This document shows, one piece after another, positions 11,790 to 60,515 of a stretch of DNA of 64,000 nucleotides. This DNA is from a virus. Lineage: Duplodnaviria; Heunggongvirae; Uroviricota; Caudoviricetes. Under the pieces are notes generated by a model. It had not been told where the DNA came from, made no database searches, and saw nothing but the letters and a program-made list of their open reading frames with translations. The stretch's first letter is position 1, and each line of letters begins with the position of its first letter. The stretch spans positions 1-64,000 of the IMG/VR virus record IMGVR_UViG_3300041411_000102. One strand, given 5' to 3'. The position numbers were made by a program, and so were the translations under genes.

Positions 11790-12425
11790 TTAGATATTAA
11801 AAGTTTCTTTTCCTAGAGCGATGTCTAGTTTTAAATTAATTGCACGAATCTTGATTGCATCATATGCTCTCTGATTTAGCTGAGAGTCTTTTGAGTATTC
11901 ATCCAGACGGCGTAAGAATACATCATATTTAGCTTGTTGCCAAGTTTTATGAGCTTCATTTTGTGTAGTGAAGTGTCCTAAGTTCTTTTGAATTTGATCT
12001 TTGTTTCTCTTGTCCTTAATAGAAGCCCGGAATATCTTTGAGCGACCTTTAGCAATTTGATCTTTCAACAGAGATACTCCCAAAGGCCACTTACCTCTGA
12101 TTGCTTTACTAGTTACGAGAAGGGTGTTGATATAGGATGGAACAAATACTGTAGTATCAGGACTATAAATATTATTTCCTTTCACAAGAATGTCTTTATC
12201 TAAGTCCAGACCTTTCCAATTTTGTTGCTCCATCCAAGCCTTGAAAGTACTTGCAGTCTTCCACTCTTCACAAACTGTTGTGTCTTTGTAAGTCGGATGC
12301 CGTTCTTTCTCCCTGTCAGAAAAGCCTCTTCGAAGCATCTCAAGCCAAGTGTTGTAGAAAGGACATTTAGCAACAACATAGTCTAGGTCATTAATTCCAA
12401 CTCCATAAATTAGTTTTCTTGACAC
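11790..12425 (-). CDS. Homing-endonuclease-like protein, 'LDKDIL...YSPxTCxFVP' family, paralogue 1
   Basis: Shares W..F..W and 'GLDLDKDILVKGNNIYSPDTTVFVP' motifs with the ORFs at 20860, 27628, 44491 and 60512. Confidence 0.55.
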   Translation of the reverse strand: MSRKLIYGVGINDLDYVVAKCPFYNTWLEMLRRGFSDREKERHPTYKDTTVCEEWKTASTFKAWMEQQNWKGLDLDKDILVKGNNIYSPDTTVFVPSYINTLLVTSKAIRGKWPLGVSLLKDQIAKGRSKIFRASIKDKRNKDQIQKNLGHFTTQNEAHKTWQQAKYDVFLRRLDEYSKDSQLNQRAYDAIKIRAINLKLDIALGKETFNI

Positions 12426-13472: not shown

Positions 13473-14331
13473 TTAGTTGACGAAACTGGATAAAGCCTTT
13501 CAAGTTACCACTCCACATATTACCTTCTTTATCCATATGGGTCATGCCATCTTCCCACAAATACTTGTCTGTTTGCTGTGGCTCTTTCATAGGACTAGCG
13601 CAGTGTTCGAACGGCGATGCGTGAACAGGTGTAGATTCTACCAGACGTTGATAAACTTTACGAGCCTTTTCAATACTATCATCAAGCAATCTGTAACTTA
13701 CTTGAGCACAGCAGCTAGAGCTAATCGCAAGTGCATCTTCTAGGGTAATTCCACAACCTTTTAGCCAGTATCCATCACCAAAGTAGGGCGTATGCCAGTC
13801 TCCCGGTTGAAGCGTTACAACACTACTTTCCTTCATTGCTTGGTACATCCGCTCAGCAAGTTCTTTAATTTCTGGTTGTGCATCTTCGTGCTTACGCAAC
13901 CAGAAGAAGTTATCAAACTCTGTACTAGTTAGAACAGTTTTCATCAGTTGGAACGGTTCAAGGATACGATTTACAATTTGTTTATGAGCGCCTTGAGCCG
14001 ACATTTGTTTAGCATTATATGAAACTTCATTTGCAGCGTCTTTCCACAGAGCTTGTACTACATCCAACTCATACCCACTAAGCTCTTCTTTAGCTTGCAT
14101 ACCACTCTGGTTTTTACCCCAATGAACCGGAGTTGCGGGATCATTTTCTACTTGAGTAATCATCTTTTCAACTGGAACAGCCCGACTACTCATTGCATTG
14201 CGACTAAACAACCGGTGAGTCATGATCTCCGAGTGTATGAACCTAGGATACTCCAGCTCAAAAGTAGTGATACGCTTCCCGTTTACAGCACTATAGCTGT
14301 CAGCTATGATTTTTGCTTTAATTTGACTCAA
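13435..14331 (-). CDS. thyX: Flavin-dependent thymidylate synthase ThyX
   Basis: ThyX signature 'HRLFSRNAMSSRAVP', matching RHRxxSxxxxSxR. Confidence 0.85.
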   Translation of the reverse strand: MSQIKAKIIADSYSAVNGKRITTFELEYPRFIHSEIMTHRLFSRNAMSSRAVPVEKMITQVENDPATPVHWGKNQSGMQAKEELSGYELDVVQALWKDAANEVSYNAKQMSAQGAHKQIVNRILEPFQLMKTVLTSTEFDNFFWLRKHEDAQPEIKELAERMYQAMKESSVVTLQPGDWHTPYFGDGYWLKGCGITLEDALAISSSCCAQVSYRLLDDSIEKARKVYQRLVESTPVHASPFEHCASPMKEPQQTDKYLWEDGMTHMDKEGNMWSGNLKGFIQFRQLIEGNVYNDFKGH

Positions 14332-14959
14332 TTTGTTTAACTCCTTTATTTAATCTTGCTGAATTACAAGAGAAGCATGCCATTGTAATGTTGTTTGCAG
14401 AATGCAGTCCACCACTAGAGAGTTCAATAATGTGTTCAAGTGTCCTATCATCTTCTTCTGTAAACTCTTTACACCAGTAACAAAGTTCTTCTGAATAAAT
14501 CGATTCTATGAAAGCATCAGTTACTGTACCATCTTCGGTGACCTTAATCAAGCTACGTCTATTAAATTGGTTGATCCGATGTAGCGTTCTCCACCTATTT
14601 CGATTAGCGTCCCTGTATGCCTGAGTGCGGATTTTAGCCTTCTCTTTATCATAGTATTTCTCCTTAGCACAAGATTTACAATAAGATGATAGATTTGCCG
14701 AACCCCTTTTGGCGGGAGGAAACTCTTTAAAAGGAAACATCTCCTTACAGCAAGCACACTGCTTCATTTCGTTATCAAAATCTACAACAGATTTTTCTAG
14801 CTTATTGTACCCAAGCCTTTCTCTATTAGCTACTACTCTACAATCCGTGCACCAACTATTTCTGTACCTAACAGATCCATCTTCATTTCTTTTAGTTACG
14901 GAGAAATTTTCAAGAGCCTTAATTTCTAAACACTTCGTACAGCATTTATTCTCTATCAT
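14318..14959 (-). CDS. HNH endonuclease with N-terminal Cys-rich zinc-finger repeats
   Basis: C-terminal 'EHIIELSSGGLHSANNITMACFSCNSAR' is an HNH motif. Several CxxC pairs lie N-terminal. Confidence 0.7.
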   Translation of the reverse strand: MIENKCCTKCLEIKALENFSVTKRNEDGSVRYRNSWCTDCRVVANRERLGYNKLEKSVVDFDNEMKQCACCKEMFPFKEFPPAKRGSANLSSYCKSCAKEKYYDKEKAKIRTQAYRDANRNRWRTLHRINQFNRRSLIKVTEDGTVTDAFIESIYSEELCYWCKEFTEEDDRTLEHIIELSSGGLHSANNITMACFSCNSARLNKGVKQIESN

Positions 14960-15614: not shown

Positions 15615-16055
15615 TTATTTCAAATATTCTTTGCAAAACTTAGGAACATCAAATGTGTTCCAATCTTTATATTTACCCTGACCAAAATGAATCCTCTTAT
15701 CTGCATCGAACTTGGTAAGATTATCCTCTAAATCATCCACCATTGCAACAAGAGAATCATTCAGAATCCATTTCTCATGTGTACCAACAAAGCCAGTCAT
15801 AAAAGGAAAGTGCTTCTTTAGGAAATACACTTTCGATCTGTGATGATTACCTTTCAATCGGCTTACAAACACTATACCAAAGTATTTACTAAGTTGCTCA
15901 AGTTTTTCTACAGCACCCTCCATTGGAACAAGATTGTCGTAAAGGTTTTCATCTCGCCAGAAGTCTAGTGGATCTTCCAAGTGAGGTGACGCTTGTCTGT
16001 AAAGGGTGAGTGTGTCTACAACTACGCCGTCGACATCAATACCTAGAAGTCTCAT
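15615..16055 (-). CDS. HAD-family 5'(3')-deoxyribonucleotidase
   Basis: N-terminal 'LGIDVDGVVVD' is the DxDGV motif. About 146 aa. Confidence 0.65.
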   Translation of the reverse strand: MRLLGIDVDGVVVDTLTLYRQASPHLEDPLDFWRDENLYDNLVPMEGAVEKLEQLSKYFGIVFVSRLKGNHHRSKVYFLKKHFPFMTGFVGTHEKWILNDSLVAMVDDLEDNLTKFDADKRIHFGQGKYKDWNTFDVPKFCKEYLK

Positions 16056-16591
16056 TTAATCTTCCCTGTCAACACAAGTTCAAGCTCAGCAAGTACGTTG
16101 AACGCGGTATGTGCCAGATGAACAATATTACTCTCTTCATCAGTCCGATCAATAGCTGGAATACCTTGAGCTTTCTGAATAAACCCCTTCACTCGATGAC
16201 GACTAGCCGCAGCAGAGAACTCAGTTTCGGCGTTAGGCAAGGACTTCCAATCATGAGGCTTATAACCTTTGTTCTCTGCTGCCCATGTCATTACCTTTGC
16301 AACTTCAGTAATTGCGTTGGGGAAACCTGAATCAAACAAATCCATTTGTACTTTACCAACTTTGCGTTCTTCTAGGATTGGCCGCACGATTGCAGATGTT
16401 TTACCAACACTTAGAAGTTCCAATTCGTTTTCGTGAAATAATTCAGATCGTCCTTGATCATCTCGTACAGAATACACGAACACATTTCCACAGTTTACTT
16501 CAACAGTCCCGATAAACCCTTCAGGAACGTTTGGTGTATCTTCCACTGAAATAACCCTATCTCCGGCAGTGAACTTATTTACAATCGTCAT
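16052..16591 (-). CDS. Putative dATP/dGTP pyrophosphohydrolase, MazG-like C-terminus
   Basis: C-terminal 'ENKGYKPHDW...AASRHRVKGF...IVHLAHTAFN' recalls phage dNTP diphosphohydrolases. Weak call. Confidence 0.35.
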   Translation of the reverse strand: MTIVNKFTAGDRVISVEDTPNVPEGFIGTVEVNCGNVFVYSVRDDQGRSELFHENELELLSVGKTSAIVRPILEERKVGKVQMDLFDSGFPNAITEVAKVMTWAAENKGYKPHDWKSLPNAETEFSAAASRHRVKGFIQKAQGIPAIDRTDEESNIVHLAHTAFNVLAELELVLTGKIK

Positions 16592-16730: not shown

Positions 16731-17039
16731 TTAAAGCCCCGTTACTTTAGCAATCCATTTACCAAGCTTACTGTGCTGATTAATTCCTGCCTCACCTGTA
16801 AACAACCACAGAAATGGAGCACATACAGCCCAAATAGGAAGCATCCAGAGTGTGTTGAGACGATTAGCTACTGTACGTTTTGTATAGACATCATCATAGT
16901 AATATACTCGATACTCACTGTTATCCTCAAACAAGAACTCTAACAGACCTTCTGGTGTTTGTGGAAGATATTTATTTTCTTTAAATTCAGCCAGTAGTTT
17001 GTATTTATATGCTTCGTGTACTCGGTTGTGAATGCTCAT
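16731..17039 (-). CDS. Hypothetical membrane-anchored protein
   Basis: Tracked ORF with a C-terminal hydrophobic segment. Confidence 0.45.
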   Translation of the reverse strand: MSIHNRVHEAYKYKLLAEFKENKYLPQTPEGLLEFLFEDNSEYRVYYYDDVYTKRTVANRLNTLWMLPIWAVCAPFLWLFTGEAGINQHSKLGKWIAKVTGL

Positions 17040-17593
17040 TTCCCGTGCCTCTCTGTGAAATTACCTTGACTGTCTTCCCAGTCTTTACGAGCTTTCTTAG
17101 CCTCATCTAGTGTATCAAATTGGCCTATATACTCCCTGACAAATTGACCCTCAACAACCATATTACCTCGTGCTATCCATTTGCCATTATCTTTCCTAAA
17201 ATTAACCCCGTTAACACCGGAGCTATTATTCTTTGATATACTAGCATTACGGGCATTGACCTGTCTAGGAACATCTCGCAGATTGGCTATTTTATTATTC
17301 AACCCATCTCCGTCCCAGTGGTCAATATCACCACTGGGCCAAACACCGTAATGTAAAAACCAAGCAACCCTGTGAGCTTTATGCTTAGTATCGTTGATCC
17401 TTACATTAGTATAGGTTGATTCACCATAATCACATTGACCAATTATCTCCTTACCTGCAAACAAAGTGTGCCACCGTTTCATGGCACTTTCTGTTTTAAA
17501 GTGATAGCTTGGTCTGTGATCTTTCCAAAATAACTTGCCAGTCAAAGGGTCATATGTAATCGACTCCTTTATGATTTGGTCAATATTTTGCAT
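17036..17593 (-). CDS. HNH homing endonuclease (HNH_3)
   Basis: 'HRVAWFLHYGVWPSGDIDHWDGDGLNNKIANL'. Start moved to the ATG at 17593 so it does not overlap the upstream gene. Confidence 0.65.
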   Translation of the reverse strand: MQNIDQIIKESITYDPLTGKLFWKDHRPSYHFKTESAMKRWHTLFAGKEIIGQCDYGESTYTNVRINDTKHKAHRVAWFLHYGVWPSGDIDHWDGDGLNNKIANLRDVPRQVNARNASISKNNSSGVNGVNFRKDNGKWIARGNMVVEGQFVREYIGQFDTLDEAKKARKDWEDSQGNFTERHGK

Positions 17594-18482
17594 GAATCCA
17601 CCGAGCATTTTTATCCATAACCATTGGTTCCAAAACAGGCATAGAGTCAATGATTAGTCCGGTCCCCAGAATCGGCCTTTTAATATTTACATTGTTGTAA
17701 TTGAATGCAAGTTTGTCATCATCAATCAAACAACCACACTGCATACCCCAATAAAGTCCTGTACTATTGCCCCAGTAATCAATCTTAAATGTCTCATGGT
17801 AGTGGCCTTGCGATGCATTCATGCCCATCTGCTGACTAAGTTGGATAATATTACTTGTCTTCCCGTGATGCATGTAGCACTTCTGACCATTTGGGAGATC
17901 TACAGTAAGATCAAAGCTCCACTTCCATCCACTATCTACAACCAACACTTCGTTATACGATTTTATGTAGTGTTTTGGAATACCAAACACCTTAGCCTTA
18001 CGCCACACCAAACTACCATGATTACTTTCAAGAATATCCATCTTTGGAAAGATCTTAAATAACTCTGCAATCACAGGCAAAGCTTGACGAATCTCATCAC
18101 CAGCGCTTGGCAGATCTGGGTCACTATCGTGAAAGCTCAGGGCGTGACCATCAACCTCATCACCCAAACAGATAACACGGGTGGGATTGTACTTATCTTT
18201 CAAATGTTTCAAGAAAGCAATAGCATCTTGGTGATGATAAGGAATGTGCAAATCACTGATCAACAAAATTCGACTGTTGTCATGTTCAACAGAGTCATTC
18301 TTACGGACAGAATAAGTTTCTGAAGAACGGCGGTTGTCCACAACAACTTGGCTGAACTCTTTGCGCAAGTAATCAGAAACAGTGGACTTACTTACATCAA
18401 GAAGTTCTGCAATCTTCCTCCAACTTTTACCTGTCTTTGCTAGCTCAATTGCTTTTTCTTTCCATTCGCTCAAAACTATCAC
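17580..18482 (-). CDS. HTH-fused PPP-family metallophosphoesterase, lambda Ser/Thr phosphatase-like
   Basis: N-terminal HTH 'WRKIAELLDVSKSTVSDYL'. Phosphoesterase motifs 'DLHIP', 'GDEVDG' and 'SNHG'. Confidence 0.6.
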   Translation of the reverse strand: MIVLSEWKEKAIELAKTGKSWRKIAELLDVSKSTVSDYLRKEFSQVVVDNRRSSETYSVRKNDSVEHDNSRILLISDLHIPYHHQDAIAFLKHLKDKYNPTRVICLGDEVDGHALSFHDSDPDLPSAGDEIRQALPVIAELFKIFPKMDILESNHGSLVWRKAKVFGIPKHYIKSYNEVLVVDSGWKWSFDLTVDLPNGQKCYMHHGKTSNIIQLSQQMGMNASQGHYHETFKIDYWGNSTGLYWGMQCGCLIDDDKLAFNYNNVNIKRPILGTGLIIDSMPVLEPMVMDKNARWIHAKY

Positions 18483-20859: not shown

Positions 20860-21564
20860 TTAATAGTAGATTTCAAGACTAGACAACAATCGTTCTTCTA
20901 CCAACCCCTTCCATTTCAAGGAAAGCTGATTCATTTGTTTACGTTTTTCAATAAAGTAAGCAGTAGATGCCTCCTCCTTTGTATCAAATGTTCCAAGATA
21001 TACTTTTGCACAACCAGACATGAACTTATCACCGGAGCGGGTTTTAGTATAACCTTTGGCTTTCCTAGTGTTCACGACCGCATTGTTAATTTCTCTTGGT
21101 ACAAAAGCACAAAACTCTGGACCATATACTTTGTTACCTTTAAGGATGATGTCTTTATCAATAGCCCATTTATCTTCCTTGAACCCTTTCTGCCACTGGC
21201 ACCACTCAGCAAACTCTTGGAAGTTGTACCATTGAGGGTCAACTTCACAACCCAAGTAAGGCTTATTATGTCCTCCGTAGCACCTATTAAAAATACCCAT
21301 CCAAAGAGTATAGGCTTTATTTTCATTGGAACCTACATACGGTCCCTGTACCATGAAACCTCTCCCAAACAACAAAGGTTTCATCCTGTCCCGTACAGTT
21401 TTCCTAAGTATATGCCCGCTTTGTGTGGTTGTTTCATAGCCAGTATCAAGAAACTTTAACGTTACTGACATCACACCATTGTAAGCTGTGACTTCAGCTT
21501 TGCCGTCAGGAAGATCCACAACTTGACCAACAACTAGTTTTGATTTTGTACCATTATACCCCAT
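20860..21564 (-). CDS. Homing-endonuclease-like protein, paralogue 2
   Basis: Family motifs 'WAIDKDIILKGNKVYGPEFCAFVP'. Confidence 0.55.
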   Translation of the reverse strand: MGYNGTKSKLVVGQVVDLPDGKAEVTAYNGVMSVTLKFLDTGYETTTQSGHILRKTVRDRMKPLLFGRGFMVQGPYVGSNENKAYTLWMGIFNRCYGGHNKPYLGCEVDPQWYNFQEFAEWCQWQKGFKEDKWAIDKDIILKGNKVYGPEFCAFVPREINNAVVNTRKAKGYTKTRSGDKFMSGCAKVYLGTFDTKEEASTAYFIEKRKQMNQLSLKWKGLVEERLLSSLEIYY

Positions 21565-27627: not shown

Positions 27628-28389
27628 TTAAATCAGAAACTCTTTAAGTTTAGTGATAAGCCTATCATCAACTCTGCCAGCATACAAACCTACAAGTTCA
27701 GAAACCCTGATTTTCTTATAGTCCATATAAGCTTCATATGCCAATTCAGGGGTGGGAAACCTGCCCAGAGCTTTCCTATAACCACCAGCACCACAACCAG
27801 CCTGATAGTTTCCTCTATCTTTTACATAGCTCACACCTGTTGGTAAGTCGTCTGTTTTTGTTGTTGGAATTATAAACAGAGTATTAATCTCTTGAGGTAC
27901 AAATATGCAAACATCTGGACTATAGACTTTACCTGCCGTAACTCCTCCGAGCAGGTCTTTATCCAATTGCCAACCTTTTTCATTAAAACCTACTTGATCT
28001 TGACACCAACCACCAAAATTCTGGAAATTGTGCCATACCTCATCTACAGCACAGCCAACATAAGTCGGGCTTCGTAATGAACTGAGAATACTATAACACC
28101 TCTCCATTGCGCCCTTCCAAAACATATACTCTCTGCCACCAGACTTGTAACCCTCTAAGCTATTTTTGTCGATCCCATAATAACCGACACCAAAAACAGA
28201 ACGAAAGAATGGGTTGGCAACCTCACCCCTTCGTAAATCTCCTGTACTCACAGTCTTAATGTAAGCGTGGTCGTCTTGAAATTGAACAACTACATCGAAT
28301 GCACCATTGTATTCAATAACAACACACTCACAACCTTGGTTTGTTTTAAACCTTTCACCCACTTTGGGTTTATTCATTTTACCCGGCAC
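27628..28389 (-). CDS. Homing-endonuclease-like protein, paralogue 3
   Basis: 'GWQLDKDLLGG..KVYSPDVCIFVPQEIN'. Confidence 0.55.
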   Translation of the reverse strand: MPGKMNKPKVGERFKTNQGCECVVIEYNGAFDVVVQFQDDHAYIKTVSTGDLRRGEVANPFFRSVFGVGYYGIDKNSLEGYKSGGREYMFWKGAMERCYSILSSLRSPTYVGCAVDEVWHNFQNFGGWCQDQVGFNEKGWQLDKDLLGGVTAGKVYSPDVCIFVPQEINTLFIIPTTKTDDLPTGVSYVKDRGNYQAGCGAGGYRKALGRFPTPELAYEAYMDYKKIRVSELVGLYAGRVDDRLITKLKEFLI

Positions 28390-50297: not shown

Positions 50298-50861
50298 TTA
50301 CACTGTTGGAAGAAGGTGTTTCCAAGTAAAGCCATCAAGGATATTACGAATACAACCCTCACTTACACCATAAGTTTCTCTTAGTTTCTTTCTAGTACCA
50401 TGTTCATTAGCTGCATACAGTCTACGAATCTCTATTACTTGAACTTCTGTAAGCTTTGATAGGTGATGTGTCTCACCGGATGGTGTAGGAAGTCTGTTAC
50501 CTATCTTTGGATTCTTCCAATAGTGTTCTTTATTCTCCTTCTGTGTAACCCACTCTAAATTAGACATCTTGTTATTTGTTGTGTCTAGGTCTTTATGATT
50601 CACTTCCAGTTCATCCATCATAGGATTAGGTTGAAAGGTCAGCATGACTAATCTATGTACAAGTAGTGACTTACGCTTTCTAGGTTCAGGATAAAGCTGT
50701 ACTAGAATATAACCTGTTGTGTTAGGGCTACCTTTAAGGATTATTTCTTCTCGTCTGTAAGCCTTTACTAAACTCTTAACGCGTCCCATGTTACTAACTT
50801 GGTAGCCGGGATACCCTTCAATGTCTCTCCATATTTCTTCTTGAATCATTTCACACTCCAC
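50298..50861 (-). CDS. HNH homing endonuclease (HNH_3/NUMOD-type)
   Basis: 'HRLVMLTFQPNP...VNHKDLDTTNNKMSNLEWVTQKEN'. Confidence 0.75.
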   Translation of the reverse strand: MECEMIQEEIWRDIEGYPGYQVSNMGRVKSLVKAYRREEIILKGSPNTTGYILVQLYPEPRKRKSLLVHRLVMLTFQPNPMMDELEVNHKDLDTTNNKMSNLEWVTQKENKEHYWKNPKIGNRLPTPSGETHHLSKLTEVQVIEIRRLYAANEHGTRKKLRETYGVSEGCIRNILDGFTWKHLLPTV

Positions 50862-51526: not shown

Positions 51527-51743
51527 AGCTTGTTATCTCTTCTCCTGTCTCTAAGTCTTCTAGGTAATAATACACATGAGGGTTTTCTTTAATACAACCT
51601 CTAAGGCATTGGCGTGCATCACTAACATCTTCAAAGTAGTCAATCGTACTACCTGTATTTGTTTCAAAGTCTTCCCAGTGTAGCCAGTACCTTTCAATCT
51701 CCACTGTACTTAGAAATTCTTCTTCTGCTAAATGATCTATCAT
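51510..51743 (-). CDS. Hypothetical acidic protein
   Basis: Tracked ORF. Confidence 0.45.
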   Translation of the reverse strand: MIDHLAEEEFLSTVEIERYWLHWEDFETNTGSTIDYFEDVSDARQCLRGCIKENPHVYYYLEDLETGEEITSYDPND

Positions 51744-52312
51744 CAGTTGCTCTCCACAAATTTAATCAATCGTTGTTTATCATCTTCATTGTACAAATTA
51801 AAACAAGGAACGTTATGCTTCTTAGCCAACTCCCAAGCTGTCCTAGTGCCACCTTTCAACTGACCATGTTTATCTACCTGTGCCCAGCAGATAAGAAAGC
51901 TTGAGGGATTATTAAGATTTGACCCCAGTATTTGAAACGTATTACGTGCATGTAGTGCCTTAGCTCCTTTAGAGCACCTGTCCCAAGCTGGGTGTGTCTC
52001 AGAGGCTAGCTTATAGGCTTCCTCTTTCTTGCTCATTCTGTCCAACACTTTGTACCAGTCTTTATAGTATTCATCGTAAGTTGTAAATGAAGCCCAAGGA
52101 ATATAAATCTGTGCAAGGATAGGACAGTTAAAACCATCTGAAGTTTCAGAACCCCACTTCTTAGATCCATCCTCAAATGCTGTGTCTGCACCACCTGCTG
52201 CACCAGAACGTAGAATATAACCTTTCTCACATAATTTATAAGCAATATCTTCCATTAACTTTAGAATATCTTTTGGTGTTTGTCGTGAACCAATACCTGT
52301 GTAGTATTTCAT
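51743..52312 (-). CDS. Rossmann-fold protein, possibly SLOG or DprA/LOG-like
   Basis: 'YTGIGSRQTP...LRSGAAGGADTAFEDG', a glycine-rich nucleotide-binding loop of the DprA/YpsA/LOG type. Confidence 0.35.
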   Translation of the reverse strand: MKYYTGIGSRQTPKDILKLMEDIAYKLCEKGYILRSGAAGGADTAFEDGSKKWGSETSDGFNCPILAQIYIPWASFTTYDEYYKDWYKVLDRMSKKEEAYKLASETHPAWDRCSKGAKALHARNTFQILGSNLNNPSSFLICWAQVDKHGQLKGGTRTAWELAKKHNVPCFNLYNEDDKQRLIKFVESN

Positions 52313-54754: not shown

Positions 54755-54812
54755 AAGCTCTTTTCACTGAACGCAGCTATTTATAGTGAAAATCTTCGGT
54801 AAAAGTGCCTTT

Positions 54813-55196
54813 TCAATCGATTTTCTCAGGGTATTTGTAATCGTTTGTTTTGTAGTCGTGGTGAAACTCTAAAATCAGACCTACAAAGGCCCAGCAAGGG
54901 TATGTTTTATTCGCTGAAACTAGTTGCTTTAAAGTAGAGAATCCAGTTGATTCAAGAAACGTGCTGATTTCTAGTCCGAGCTTTTTACATGTACGCTTCA
55001 GATACTTAAGTTCAGTTGCTGGAACGTGGCGTTGTGGGAAACGTACACCATATTCTGACCCAAGTGCTCGCCACACTGGTTCATCAGCGAAATCATCTTT
55101 TAGATTAGCTTTTGCCCACTCTTGGTCTGCAATCCTCTTAAGTCGAACAGCTTCACGTTGTTCTTGACTCATTGGTGTAAAAGTTGGGTTACTCAT
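54813..55196 (-). CDS. Hypothetical protein
   Basis: ATG at 55196 follows an AAGGAGAAACAAG RBS. The tracked start is 55220. Confidence 0.5.
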   Translation of the reverse strand: MSNPTFTPMSQEQREAVRLKRIADQEWAKANLKDDFADEPVWRALGSEYGVRFPQRHVPATELKYLKRTCKKLGLEISTFLESTGFSTLKQLVSANKTYPCWAFVGLILEFHHDYKTNDYKYPEKID

Positions 55197-55341
55197 CTTG
55201 TTTCTCCTTCTTATGGTCACGAGGGCAGGTGAAGTCCCGCTTGTGTCCTATAAATGTTCCACCACATAGTGTGCAAGTACAGAAATAGTTTCCCGTACTA
55301 CCATCTTCATATTTCTTTGTTGGCACATCTTTAAAGTTCAT
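55189..55341 (-). CDS. 50 aa Cys-rich small protein
   Basis: AAGGAGATAGAAA RBS. 'CTCTLCGG...CPRDH'. Confidence 0.4.
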   Translation of the reverse strand: MNFKDVPTKKYEDGSTGNYFCTCTLCGGTFIGHKRDFTCPRDHKKEKQDE

Positions 55342-55564
55342 TTTCTATCTCCTTCAATTTAAGCCGTCGTTCTAAGTTAATCACGTATTCAAAATGCTTT
55401 TCCATATAACTTGACAGTCTGAAATCTTCAGACAACCTCTTTTCCTTATACTCTTTGAAAGCTATGAAGTCTGGCTCAGCACCTAATGCAAATTCTGCTT
55501 CCCAAGCTAGACGTTGTTTAACTAACCCTACCACTATCTTTCTCCCAAATATTATTGTAAGCAC
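55331..55564 (-). CDS. Hypothetical protein
   Basis: Tracked ORF. Confidence 0.45.
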   Translation of the reverse strand: MLTIIFGRKIVVGLVKQRLAWEAEFALGAEPDFIAFKEYKEKRLSEDFRLSSYMEKHFEYVINLERRLKLKEIENEL

Positions 55565-55928
55565 CTAGCAACGACCTATTCAGCCACTGATCGTTCCAAT
55601 CAAAATCATCCTCAACATCCAGAATAGTAACTCTAACACCTACATCAGAAATCTCGTCCTTTTCTTCTTGGTTCAAACTATTAAAGTTTTCTCGGGTGAC
55701 AAATACAATCTCATCCGCCCACCAAATCAACGCTTGAGAGATTGGAATCAAGGCATACTCTTTATCACAACCTACAGCACGAGTGTTGAAACCAAACTCT
55801 TTGTGCAGCACATTAGCTAGGCTAGGTGAGCGAAGTAGTCCAGCCGAACAACAGCACAACACTTTCTTGGCCGATGTCTGAAACTTGTTACCTACGTTAG
55901 CCAGCTGGTTTCGTTTCCCTTTAAACAT
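55518..55928 (-). CDS. Low-molecular-weight protein-tyrosine-phosphatase / ArsC-like protein
   Basis: P-loop 'CCSAGLLRS' matches CX5R(S). About 136 aa. Confidence 0.5.
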   Translation of the reverse strand: MFKGKRNQLANVGNKFQTSAKKVLCCCSAGLLRSPSLANVLHKEFGFNTRAVGCDKEYALIPISQALIWWADEIVFVTRENFNSLNQEEKDEISDVGVRVTILDVEDDFDWNDQWLNRSLLGAYNNIWEKDSGRVS

Positions 55929-56101
55929 TTTCCTCTCCCTTCAAGCTTTCAATATACTCAAGCACAAGTTTAGTTTGTTCCATCGCAAACTCAATAAGAT
56001 GATTATCCTCTCAACCACATGCTTTAGAAATCTTCTTGCAGCGTTTGTTACAACCCTCAAGTTCACGGTGTAGTAGTGTCAGTTGTTTCTCTAGTTGTAG
56101 C

Positions 56102-56632
56102 TTATTCAATCCCAAGTTCCTTCTTAGCCTTCTCTACAATATCCTTAGCCTGTGCATACAGAGTAGGATCACCTTCAGTTAGCACTTCAAGCAACAACTC
56201 TTTCTCTTTAATATAAACCTTTGCAAAATCTTTATCGTGTTCAAGAATTGACTTGCTGTTAGAGATAAGATCTGCAAGTTTGATTGTCTTAGCTTGTGGT
56301 GAAGACTGTGCTGTGTGCATACGATCAATCTCTTTACGTCTGGCACGATTACCGTCTTCTGGTTTAGAGACATCTGAAAGCCAGCCAACAAGTTCAGCAA
56401 CTTCTTTTCCAAACTCCTTCTCAATCAATTCGTTTGTAATGTTGCAATCTTCCTGTACGTCATGTAGGTATGCTGCTGCAATCATATCATCCGTACCATA
56501 TGCAGCATAAACTGTCATTGCAACCTCTGCTGGATGGTGGTAATAAGACTCTCCAGTGTATTTTCTCTTTTGTTGAACAGCTTCGTGCGCAGCTATGGAG
56601 AATATACGAGCTTTACTTGTTAAATTGTTCAT
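56102..56632 (-). CDS. HD-domain hydrolase resembling the SpoT/RelA (p)ppGpp hydrolase domain (small alarmone hydrolase)
   Basis: 'HPAEVAMTV...AAYLHDVQED' fits the H...HD...D HD-domain signature. 176 aa. Confidence 0.65.
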   Translation of the reverse strand: MNNLTSKARIFSIAAHEAVQQKRKYTGESYYHHPAEVAMTVYAAYGTDDMIAAAYLHDVQEDCNITNELIEKEFGKEVAELVGWLSDVSKPEDGNRARRKEIDRMHTAQSSPQAKTIKLADLISNSKSILEHDKDFAKVYIKEKELLLEVLTEGDPTLYAQAKDIVEKAKKELGIE

Positions 56633-56649
56633 AGAACCTCCTATTTAAT

Positions 56650-56690
56650 TTGTACAACCACTATAACCAAAAAGAGGGCTCAAGCACAAT
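56650..56690 (-). terminator. Weak candidate terminator
   Basis: Minus-strand GGGC...GCCC hairpin followed by CTCTTTTT. Confidence 0.25.
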
Positions 56691-56711
56691 GCCCAAGTCC
56701 TCTATAAATCT

Positions 56712-56903
56712 CTATTGGTCGAATATTGTTGATGCATTTTCTTCATAATAAGTTTTAAGCATTTCACTGATTTCACGGGAACTCCAACCACGACCCACAA
56801 CTACTTCGTGGTATTTTCCTTTGTCTGAGTGAAATTTAGGGTTCCATTCACATGCGTACATCCAAGAAGAATCAGAAAAGAGGTACAAAATACTTCTGTC
56901 CAT
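56712..56903 (-). CDS. Hypothetical protein
   Basis: Tracked ORF. Confidence 0.45.
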   Translation of the reverse strand: MDRSILYLFSDSSWMYACEWNPKFHSDKGKYHEVVVGRGWSSREISEMLKTYYEENASTIFDQ

Positions 56904-56911
56904 GTTTCACC

Positions 56912-57355
56912 TCACAGATACTTAAGATCAAGGAAGCCTTCATACTCTTGGTGTGTAAAACTTACAATATTACTGGCTGCTCGAATGTAGCCAGTTTTCT
57001 TAGACATTGTAAGGCTTACTTTATGCACAATCTTACCTACACGGGCCTTACGAATCTTGTAGGTGCTGAAATTAAATGGAGATTTAAAACGATCACCACC
57101 ATGCCAATCTTGATAGAAGTTATTGTGCAATTTTACCATTGTCTGGAATGAAACGGTGCTACGTTTCTTGTTGTCGTAGTCGTTGCTCGCAAAATACCCT
57201 TGTAAAAGATTACGTGTATATCCCAAACCTTTGGCAAACTCAGTGAGACTTTTCAACTGAACTTTTTTAGTATCAATCATCTCCTCCGGTTGAATCCACT
57301 TGTCAGAGAGTTTCTTTGCTTCCTGTACCTCTTTGTCCATTTCAACGTCAGACAT
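56912..57355 (-). CDS. Hypothetical protein
   Basis: Tracked ORF. Confidence 0.5.
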   Translation of the reverse strand: MSDVEMDKEVQEAKKLSDKWIQPEEMIDTKKVQLKSLTEFAKGLGYTRNLLQGYFASNDYDNKKRSTVSFQTMVKLHNNFYQDWHGGDRFKSPFNFSTYKIRKARVGKIVHKVSLTMSKKTGYIRAASNIVSFTHQEYEGFLDLKYL

Positions 57356-57365
57356 TTTGTTCTCC

Positions 57366-57857
57366 TTAAATTTTAATTACTTCTACATTATTCGCACGAA
57401 GGTATTCAAGACCCGCCGTGCTTCGGTAGTCATTACGATAATAGACCTTTACGATACCGCTGTCAATGATATCAATTGAACAAAGCTCACAACATGCGTG
57501 TGTGCAGAAAAGTGAAGCCCCAATGGCGCTCTCATTGCTTTTAGCCAGTGCCAAAAGGCTGTTTTTCTCGGCATGCCTGCACTCTCGTTTAGTAACAAGT
57601 TTGTAGTGATGTCCTTCTTCGTCTTGGTATGGATAGATTTCTTTAAACTCTTCAACATCCATCCACCCACCTGCACCATTACTGTAAACCCTATCCTCAA
57701 GCGGACCTTCTAGGAAACTTGGTAGTCCATTATAAGAGACAGCAATCACTGCATTATTCTTGACTAAGCAGCAACCAACCTTGAGTCTGACACCTGAAGA
57801 TGTTTCAGCAGCAGCCTCTGCAATCCTCATGTACATAAGTTGATGTTTAAGTTTCAT
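57366..57857 (-). CDS. dCMP deaminase
   Basis: Zinc-binding motifs 'CRHAEKN' (H-A-E) and 'CTHACCELC' (PCxxC-type). Confidence 0.75.
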   Translation of the reverse strand: MKLKHQLMYMRIAEAAAETSSGVRLKVGCCLVKNNAVIAVSYNGLPSFLEGPLEDRVYSNGAGGWMDVEEFKEIYPYQDEEGHHYKLVTKRECRHAEKNSLLALAKSNESAIGASLFCTHACCELCSIDIIDSGIVKVYYRNDYRSTAGLEYLRANNVEVIKI

Positions 57858-58093
57858 GAGTAATAGCTACCCATCTTAACTGATTTGTTCAACTTAGCCA
57901 AACAGATAGTACAAGTGTCCCAGTAGTGAGTTTCTGAGTAGTAATCATAACCTGCACCATAATACTTCTCTTCAGCGACTAGGTATTCTTCTGGGTGCTG
58001 ACAGCTTGCCTCTACTTCTGATTTCAGTTTGTTGTATTTCTCTAAAGCTTTCAATGCTTGAGACTTCTTTTTAAGCAGCTCTTCTGTGTTCAT
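57854..58093 (-). CDS. Hypothetical protein
   Basis: ATGA coupling. Confidence 0.45.
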   Translation of the reverse strand: MNTEELLKKKSQALKALEKYNKLKSEVEASCQHPEEYLVAEEKYYGAGYDYYSETHYWDTCTICLAKLNKSVKMGSYYS

Positions 58094-59750: not shown

Positions 59751-60515
59751 TTATTCAGTTTCTTTCGCTACAGATTTTACTGGCTTTGCACGAGAAGCTT
59801 TCTTTTCAGCAGCGTCACGAGCTGCCAGAGCCTTCTTTACACCCAATTCTACAGCATCTGCAATGATTTCGGACAAACTAGGCATTTCGTCAAAGTCTTC
59901 TTCATCTTCAAGTGCTTGATTAGCTTGACATTCCGGCGAGCCACAATCACACGGAAGAGACTTCTGATATTCGTAGAAGTTTTCCATACGTGTTTCAAGT
60001 TCTTTTGCACCAAACCAGAATTCCTTACCATCATTACACAAAAGAACTTCTTCGTCCGTGAGCAGACCCTTGTAAGTTGAAGTAATTTCCTCTTCAAGCT
60101 GTTTAATACCAAACTCAGTTTGAGACTTTACATCAGGATTTTTCCCCACAGAACCCCAAAACGCGCAATGCGCCATGAACTGAATGTGTTCAGCCCAACC
60201 GTGTTGCTTGCAAGCCAAGAAGATTCCTGTTGCAGCGCTCATACAGTCATACTCAATGAATCCGACAACATTTGCCTCGGATTCTTGTATTGCGTTGATC
60301 ACCATTCGTTCGCTAGCAACAGACCCACCCCTCGAATTTATACGGATCAAAATTTCATCTTGTGGTCCAGAACTACGTAGAATATTACACAAATCAACAT
60401 AATTCTCAGGTTCTGTAATAGGACCGGTCAAATAATAAGTATGTTGCTGACCACGGACTTCAGTTGTAAAGATGTTCTTCGGTTGAAAGAACGGCATAAA
60501 GTTTTCTTCACTCAT
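59751..60515 (-). CDS. ClpP-like (S14) serine protease
   Basis: 'IRINSRGGSVASERMVINAIQESEANVVGFIEYDCMSAATGIFLA' resembles the ClpP core 'INSPGG...IYDTMQ...MGQAAS'. Confidence 0.55.
   Translation of the reverse strand: MSEENFMPFFQPKNIFTTEVRGQQHTYYLTGPITEPENYVDLCNILRSSGPQDEILIRINSRGGSVASERMVINAIQESEANVVGFIEYDCMSAATGIFLACKQHGWAEHIQFMAHCAFWGSVGKNPDVKSQTEFGIKQLEEEITSTYKGLLTDEEVLLCNDGKEFWFGAKELETRMENFYEYQKSLPCDCGSPECQANQALEDEEDFDEMPSLSEIIADAVELGVKKALAARDAAEKKASRAKPVKSVAKETE

Follow-up and report, generated by a model that had tools for sequence, protein, structure and literature searches.

Three predicted phosphohydrolases of separate superfamilies encoded by a marine phage, one of them a divergent cysteine phosphatase

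Results

Three candidate phosphohydrolase genes in the window

We analyzed a stretch of 64,000 nucleotides (the window), corresponding to positions 1 to 64,000 of the IMG/VR record IMGVR_UViG_3300041411_000102, with respect to three open reading frames (ORFs) encoding candidate phosphohydrolases. These are a small protein with the CX5R motif of low-molecular-weight protein tyrosine phosphatases (LMW-PTP), an HD protein encoded beside it, and a helix-turn-helix (HTH)-metallophosphoesterase (MPE) fusion whose gene is located 37 kb away. The window (G+C 40%) is phage DNA, as evident from the replication, nucleotide and tail genes that it encodes. Among them are genes for a tail fibre, ribonucleotide reductase (RNR), thymidylate synthase, endonuclease VII, an exonuclease, a gp2.5-like single-stranded DNA-binding protein, a family A DNA polymerase, a primase/helicase, PhoH and numerous HNH endonucleases. 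With the polymerases of Pseudomonas myoviruses of approximately 96-100 kb, that of the window shares 59% identity, and close relatives are metagenome contigs of 80-93 kb. Megablast of positions 54800-57900 against phage records gave zero matches at the nucleotide level.

All three ORFs reside on the minus strand (Table 1). They exist where an earlier note on this DNA had placed them, and so does every motif quoted there. These are not chance matches, as key residues of the motifs turned out to be invariant in family alignments of 57, 12 and 12 sequences. PADLOC did not disclose a meaningful match for any of the three proteins. Our overall reading, to which we assign a probability of about 0.7, is that the genes are real and mutually unrelated, each belonging to another superfamily. 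They would encode a PaSpo-like alarmone hydrolase, a cysteine phosphatase of the LMW-PTP fold and an HTH-MPE of a DNA module, respectively; the first two would be neighbors incidentally, and no signalling unit would be formed.

Table 1. Candidate phosphohydrolase genes of the window and their predicted active-site codons
Feature	Position	Strand	Basis
LMW-PTP-fold cysteine phosphatase (predicted), uncharacterised family mostly on phage contigs, 136 aa	55518..55928	-	
Presumed general acid, D107 codon, aromatic at +2	55608..55610	-	invariant; aligned with IPDPY loop of Vibrio Wzb
P-loop codons C27-S-A-G30-L-L-R33-S34 (CX5RS)	55827..55850	-	C27, G30 and R33 invariant in 57 diverse representatives
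Small ORF bridging hydrolase and phosphatase genes	55921..56109	-	translation, comparison with locus L102
Small alarmone hydrolase (predicted; hydrolase-only RelA/SpoT homologue, PaSpo-like), 176 aa	56102..56632	-	Pfam HD_4, phrog_990, PDB matches, identity to SSU5 PaSpo
Codons H57-D58-V-Q-E61-D62, predicted HD metal ligands and ED catalytic pair	56447..56464	-	aligned with LHDxxED of Lmo0812, Rel and Drosophila Mesh1; invariant in 12 homologues
HTH-MPE fusion (phrog_221; predicted), 300 aa, HTH ~5-49, MPE ~68-300	17580..18482	-	HTH_23, Metallophos, phrog_221, five MPE motifs

The CX5R protein is a distant relative of the LMW-PTP superfamily

The motif CCSAGLLRS occupies residues 26-34 of the CX5R protein, i.e. 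C27-X5-R33-S34-P35. Neither Pfam, PHROGs nor NCBIfam contained a match to this protein, and a PDB search with the single sequence gave none at E values up to 10. A profile of its family, however, reached the arginine phosphatase YwlE (4.7e-4) and Vibrio Wzb (6.7e-4). In the profile alignment the P-loop was matched, and I-P-D-x-Y of the family came to lie over the general-acid loop I-P-D-P-Y of Wzb. Since the Pfam LMWPc model is missed but the family profile reaches YwlE and Wzb, the protein is, as judged from these alignments, a relative of the LMW-PTP superfamily that lies outside the Pfam family in its current definition.

Conservation fits this placement. Invariant in 57 diverse representatives were, besides the P-loop residues listed in Table 1, Q17, N48, R50, G53, W70, D107 and L116, while S28 and S34 of the P-loop were conserved to at least 90% and the position two residues past D107 is held by F or Y. 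The P-loop directly follows a predicted strand (residues 23-28). An AlphaFold model calculated with 36 sequences had a mean confidence (pLDDT) of 76 with residues 1-16 disordered, and the protein conforms to the LMW-PTP fold; Foldseek against the viral structures of BFVD gave no informative match. With Wzb (7DHD/2WJA) and YwlE (4PIC, 4KK3) the protein shares the CX5R(S)P P-loop right after the first strand and an Asp-x-aromatic loop after the last one. It differs from them by a core that is about 20 residues shorter, by a P-loop whose C+3 position holds Gly in place of a conserved Asn, by an extra N-terminal segment of 20 residues with an invariant N/Q motif, by scoring below the LMWPc threshold, and by a family that resides mainly on viral contigs. 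The additional segment (55868-55928, residues 1-20) carries the motif N7-Q8-L9-x-N11-x-x-N14-x-x-Q17 ahead of the phosphatase core; Q17 is invariant in 57/57 sequences, even though disorder is predicted for the segment.

The chemistry is most likely that of a cysteine phosphatase, in which C27 would attack a phosphate held by the C-S-A-G-x-L-R-S P-loop and D107 would be the general acid. A phosphoprotein substrate of the phosphotyrosine (pTyr) type is suggested by the fold, by the catalytic triad and by the aromatic residue that follows the Asp. Hence, of the two identities initially offered for the CX5R motif, LMW-PTP or ArsC, the fold superfamily common to both was retained and ArsC was discarded: only C27 is conserved, while C25, C26 and C54 vary, which leaves no three-cysteine relay, and the redox Cys pair of thioredoxin-coupled ArsC (C82/C89 in pI258, PDB 1JF8/1LK0) is absent from the family. 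Ssu72 was rejected as well, as that protein has about 195 aa and a substrate-binding insertion, whereas the members of the family are mostly of about 125-140 aa and the Ssu72 alignment covered the P-loop region only. An identity as PTS-IIB is disfavored by the invariant Arg and Asp, which would indicate hydrolysis chemistry.

The PTP-like family is frequent on viral contigs and often neighbors nucleotide genes

We found 1237 homologues of the PTP-like protein at 90% clustering, several of which bear the JGI name 'predicted protein tyrosine phosphatase'; at 50% identity the family comprises 742 clusters. Relatives are encoded on 421 viral-contig stretches. A scan of one genome per species, carried out with a closer alignment and narrow patterns, revealed only eight occurrences, all of them on contigs of metagenome-assembled genomes, which does not prove its absence from cellular organisms. 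Literature searches for COG4551, phage LMW-PTP and phage phosphotyrosine phosphatase yielded nothing on this family.

At 80 viral loci, genes for a 5'-3' exonuclease, RNR, an RNase-H-like exonuclease, dATP/dGTP diphosphohydrolase, dCMP deaminase, ThyX and endonuclease I were recurrent neighbors of the PTP-like gene. A nucleotide-metabolism gene (RNR, Thy, dCMP deaminase or dGTP-PPase) lay within 3 kb of it at no fewer than 22 of the 54 viral loci with full flanks, a figure that is a lower bound owing to the single-query tblastn; the identities of the neighbors are based on Pfam. In two unrelated phages, Alcaligenes phage QDWS535 (L108) and Zobellviridae phage T4S1 (L109), the gene is located among those for NTP/dNTP pyrophosphohydrolase, thymidylate synthase, an MPE and RNR. 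We do not claim any linkage between the PTP-like gene and the MPE gene of the window on the basis of these two loci, as their MPEs are not clearly of the same family as that of the window (hhalign probabilities 2.9% and 81%).

This neighborhood raised the question of whether the enzyme might be a phosphatase of nucleotides or other small molecules in DNA-precursor metabolism, e.g. for NMP/dNMP or 3'-phosphates, and not a protein phosphatase. Both the frequency of nucleotide genes and the position between dATP/dGTP pyrophosphohydrolase, thymidylate synthase, MPE and RNR genes in unrelated phages speak for it, as does a P-loop that, with its Gly at C+3, is unlike that of all characterised subfamilies. 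Against this, the conserved aromatic residue two positions past the catalytic Asp is reminiscent of the DPY(Y) loop that stacks on pTyr, phage accessory genes of any kind are commonly located in an early or replication module, and to our knowledge no nucleotidase occurs in the LMW-PTP fold. Altogether, we regard this alternative as worth keeping but rather doubtful, and a phosphoprotein remains the substrate type to which the fold and the active site point.

The HD protein resembles phage small alarmone hydrolases

In the HD protein, HPAEV corresponds to residues 33-37 and AAYLHDVQED to residues 53-62. Residues 15-132 matched Pfam HD_4 (PF13328) with E=4.4e-16 and 59.4 bits (cut-off 27.2), and phrog_990, 'metal-dependent phosphohydrolase', was hit with 3.6e-34. 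Of NCBIfam TIGR00691 (spoT_relA), the N-terminal hydrolase part alone was matched (1.5e-20). The domain search revealed no synthetase or regulatory domain within the 176 aa; besides HD_4 it gave sub-threshold hits to HD and DUF305 only. The best PDB sequence matches were Lmo0812, the Rel hydrolase domain, Drosophila Mesh1 and human MESH1, with E values of about 1e-11 to 1e-10. RKYTGxxYxxHP, LHDxxED and KLADxxxN of the protein align with Rel, Mesh1 and Lmo0812, and R23-K24-Y25-T26, H33, H57-D58, E61-D62, D121 and N125 were invariant in 12 homologues. According to the alignment, the metal ligands (His, His-Asp, Asp), the Glu-Asp pair and the Asn of KLADxxxN are all present. Compared with Mesh1/MESH1 and the Rel/SpoT hydrolase domain (PDB 3NQW, 3NR1, 1VJ7, 5XNX), the motifs RxxxGxxYxxHP, LHDxxED and KLADxxxN thus agree, whereas the E values are modest and the phage protein is devoid of synthetase and regulatory domains.

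By tBLASTn, homologues were detected in 277 phage records. The protein is 47% identical over 150 aa (E=2e-45) to SSU5_099 of Salmonella phage SSU5, which we take to be the small alarmone hydrolase PaSpo of the published studies. Both are encoded by stand-alone phage genes and have a single HD_4 domain with the metal-binding and catalytic residues in common. The window protein is, however, shorter than that of SSU5 (213 aa) and lacks its C-terminal tail, and the window belongs to a marine phage of the virulent type of about 90 kb, whereas SSU5 is a phage-plasmid. As judged from these comparisons, the product is a stand-alone hydrolase of the RelA/SpoT type, i.e. a small alarmone hydrolase, as the earlier note had proposed, and thus of a known kind. 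Side by side, the homologues of this phage group (L098-L107) are nearly identical in their C-terminal half (residues ~88-176) and only 60-70% identical in their N-terminal half, a pattern that suggests intragenic recombination or a very uneven constraint.

The function of the protein can be approached via PaSpo, which neutralised all of the five toxSAS toxins with which it was co-expressed, namely CapRel, PhRel, PhRel2, FaRel and FaRel2 (PMC7229694, Table 1), and which, as stated in PMC11245113, strips tRNA of the modification introduced by FaRel2. Furthermore, aminoacylation of pyrophosphorylated tRNA was regained in vitro with MESH1 and ATfaRel (10.1101/2021.04.30.441581). Owing to the homology to SSU5 PaSpo, the window protein would be a Mn2+-dependent 3'-pyrophosphohydrolase that takes the 3'-pyrophosphate off (p)ppGpp/(p)ppApp and off the CCA ends of tRNAs modified by toxSAS, which may keep translation and growth running in the infected cell. 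The statement that (p)ppGpp-based defences are blunted by such phage enzymes nevertheless went too far: the two PaSpo papers support the neutralisation of toxSAS in co-expression and the removal of the tRNA 3'-pyrophosphate but do not show an effect during infection. A different physiological substrate, e.g. NADPH as for metazoan MESH1, was also considered, since MESH1 is among the best PDB matches; promiscuity of small alarmone hydrolases is documented in PMC9765508, and MESH1 is cited as NADPH phosphatase in 10.1101/2021.04.30.441581. The closest characterised relative, however, is PaSpo, which rescues cells from toxins that produce (pp)pApp as well as from those that pyrophosphorylate tRNA (PMC7229694, PMC11245113). 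We therefore give such a substrate little chance and favor alarmones and modified tRNA, a preference that derives from the 47% identity to the tested protein.

The HTH-MPE probably belongs to DNA metabolism

The third gene starts with GTG, and the motifs DLHIP, GDEVDG and SNHG of its product correspond to residues 77-81, 107-112 and 153-156. The N-terminus matched Pfam HTH_23 (E=1.1e-6) above the gathering score, while Pfam Metallophos (PF00149) was reached with 22.2 bits (cut-off 21.5) by the N-terminal 45 residues of the domain only. With phrog_221 the E value was 4.1e-60. Homologues occur in 646 phage records, mainly of Autographiviridae and pelagiphages, and among more than 2600 metagenomic proteins, the best 120 of which are 78-96% identical to the window protein. 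In 12 diverse homologues (down to 31% identity), D77-x-H79, G107-D108, D111, H118, N154-H155, H206 and G226-H227-x-H229 were invariant; thus, all five metal-binding motifs of MPEs, DxH, GD, (G)NH, H and GHxH, are present. In the same alignment the N-terminal region proved to be lineage-specific. Relative to the phrog_221 MPEs of Autographiviridae and pelagiphages (annotated as 'putative phosphodiesterase' or 'phosphatase 2a-like'), the window protein exhibits 38-57% identity, five identical motifs and the same exonuclease/endonuclease neighborhood. It differs in that it carries, like its marine relatives, an N-terminal HTH_23, whereas the pelagiphage copies are without an HTH and other lineages have another N-terminal region. 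No characterised member of this family was found.

Gene order is similarly informative. In Autographiviridae the MPE gene follows those for an exonuclease and endonuclease VII and is often located ahead of a gene for dNMP kinase, ligase or RNA polymerase; in the window it lies between an exonuclease gene and genes for HNH, dGTP-PPase-like, endonuclease VII, ThyA and RNR proteins. A final GHxH motif is typical of MPEs that act as diesterases or nucleases. Because of the motifs and the conserved DNA-metabolism context, the product is a predicted binuclear MPE that probably targets DNA or nucleotides and that is fused, in this lineage, to a DNA-binding HTH. The gene is a core gene of the replication/nucleotide module, and its product would most likely be a phosphodiesterase or nuclease.

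It had been described as an HTH fused to a lambda-phosphatase-like metallophosphoesterase. The fusion with HTH_23 and the MPE motifs hold, but the lambda-phosphatase (PPP) label does not: the PPP signatures GDxHG, GDxxDRG and GNH[ED] are replaced by SDLHIP, GDEVDG and SNHG, and the residue after D111, although variable, is never Arg in the 12 homologues. PDB searches with the single sequence and with a 12-sequence profile gave neither lambda phosphatase nor another PPP, nor any solved protein, at E values up to 10. A protein Ser/Thr phosphatase like that of lambda (NinI) would agree with the superfamily and its D-x-H, GD and NH motifs, and some GenBank records name homologues 'phosphatase 2a-like protein'. 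Yet, in addition to the deviating signatures and the missing PPP match, the GHxH motif, the conserved location beside exonuclease and endonuclease VII genes and the N-terminal DNA-binding HTH, which suits a DNA-directed role, argue against it, and we consider it improbable.

An HNH-type ORF (17036-17650) extends into the 3' end of the MPE gene. It is one of at least five ORFs resembling HNH or AP2-HNH homing endonucleases that are spread over the replication/nucleotide modules, the others being 11790-12338, 20860-21564, 27628-28377 and 50298-50849. Further genes of accessory appearance encode an endonuclease VII whose N-terminal region is Lar-like (14318-14959), a DprA-like protein (51743-52312) and a ClpP-like ATP-dependent protease subunit (59751-60515). 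At 16052-16591, a protein of 179 aa is encoded that was likened by eye to a Pfam-annotated protein of locus L044 and that is a putative dATP/dGTP diphosphohydrolase.

The PTP-like and hydrolase genes are independent inserts of a variable island

A contig look-up with the exact sequence of the window's PTP-like protein gave no record, and its 89%-identical homologue P0003 was taken in its place. A hydrolase homologue was present within 10 kb of the PTP-like gene at only two of the 80 loci, at one of which the genes are adjacent. Conversely, a PTP-like gene lay within 6 kb of the hydrolase gene at one of the ten closest hydrolase loci. Locus L098 does not contain the PTP-like gene, although its hydrolase is 98% identical and the flanking genes for dCMP deaminase and DUF7390 are 99% identical, whereas loci L001 and L002 contain an 89%-identical PTP-like gene without an HD gene nearby. 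The conserved backbone reads o104 - dCMP deaminase - DUF7390 - o63 - [variable] - o77 - o135 - o87, and both genes are optional inserts of the variable slot. When positions 9828-10387 of L001/L002 are compared with 55331-55928 of the window, the PTP-like gene is situated downstream of the o77 homologue in the former and upstream of o77 in the latter; the PTP-like cassette has moved within the variable island.

A small ORF bridges the two genes, both in the window and in L102, and shares its first bases with the end of the hydrolase gene and its last ones with the beginning of the PTP-like gene; in the window its start codon, TTG, overlaps the hydrolase stop. In L102 the ORF is intact (about 62 aa), whereas that of the window is interrupted by an in-frame TGA (56011-56013) and could be a pseudogene, a split peptide or the result of a sequencing error.

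A functional pairing of the two genes was rejected because their co-occurrence is too rare. They are accessory cassettes standing side by side incidentally in a variable island. That the three genes jointly rewire the stringent response and phospho-signalling of the host was likewise not borne out: a concerted takeover kit of Tyr phosphatase, (p)ppGpp hydrolase and lambda-like Ser/Thr phosphatase, for which the adjacency of two genes joined by an overlapping ORF in the window and L102 and the intact catalytic residues of all three proteins may be cited, is very improbable, as the PTP-like and hydrolase genes are independent in nearly all relatives, the MPE gene is located far off in a DNA-metabolism module and its product is without PPP signatures, and neither shared regulation nor a shared target is indicated.

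Discussion

Our data indicate that the three phosphohydrolase genes of this phage have to be discussed separately. Several observations run counter to the assignments made above. Pfam LMWPc was matched by just 3 of the 57 members of the PTP-like family (best E=0.02) and not by the window protein. The invariant Gly30 stands where Asn is expected (CxGNxCRS); this Asn is conserved in LMW-PTP, YwlE, ArsC and Ssu72. The frequent position of the PTP-like gene beside nucleotide-metabolism genes makes a non-protein substrate possible. As to the MPE, the PDB searches leave motifs and context as the grounds for its subclass, and the AlphaFold2 model, with a pLDDT of 55, was too poor for a fold search. 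Finally, the small ORF present in the window and L102 raises the possibility that the hydrolase and PTP-like genes spread as a single cassette in these two genomes, the only hint of a linkage between them.

Renaming the MPE from 'lambda phosphatase' to 'DNA-module phosphoesterase' stops a false signalling story from spreading. The hydrolase would be a marine addition to the known phage small alarmone hydrolases that are able to undo toxSAS toxicity. toxSAS systems have been implicated in anti-phage immunity. The patchy occurrence of the hydrolase gene in the variable island would fit a counter-defence accessory gene.

What real novelty remains lies solely in the small cysteine phosphatase, since its large and divergent family resides mostly on viral contigs and no characterised member was found. 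Being without a Pfam, PHROG or NCBIfam model, it is also the more useful lead. One may speculate that the protein represents a mostly phage-borne family of minimal LMW-PTP-fold enzymes in which the P-loop is altered (C-S-A-G-x-L-R-S) and preceded by an invariant N-terminal peptide rich in N/Q. Their substrate would be either a nucleotide-related or nucleic-acid phosphate or a phosphorylated part of a defence system that relies on kinases. The former is suggested by the recurrence of the gene among those for RNR, thymidylate synthase, dNTP pyrophosphohydrolase and exonucleases. We deem this proposal as a whole unlikely; if true, however, a substrate other than pTyr would mean a new activity for the LMW-PTP fold and a new auxiliary or counter-defence function of phages.

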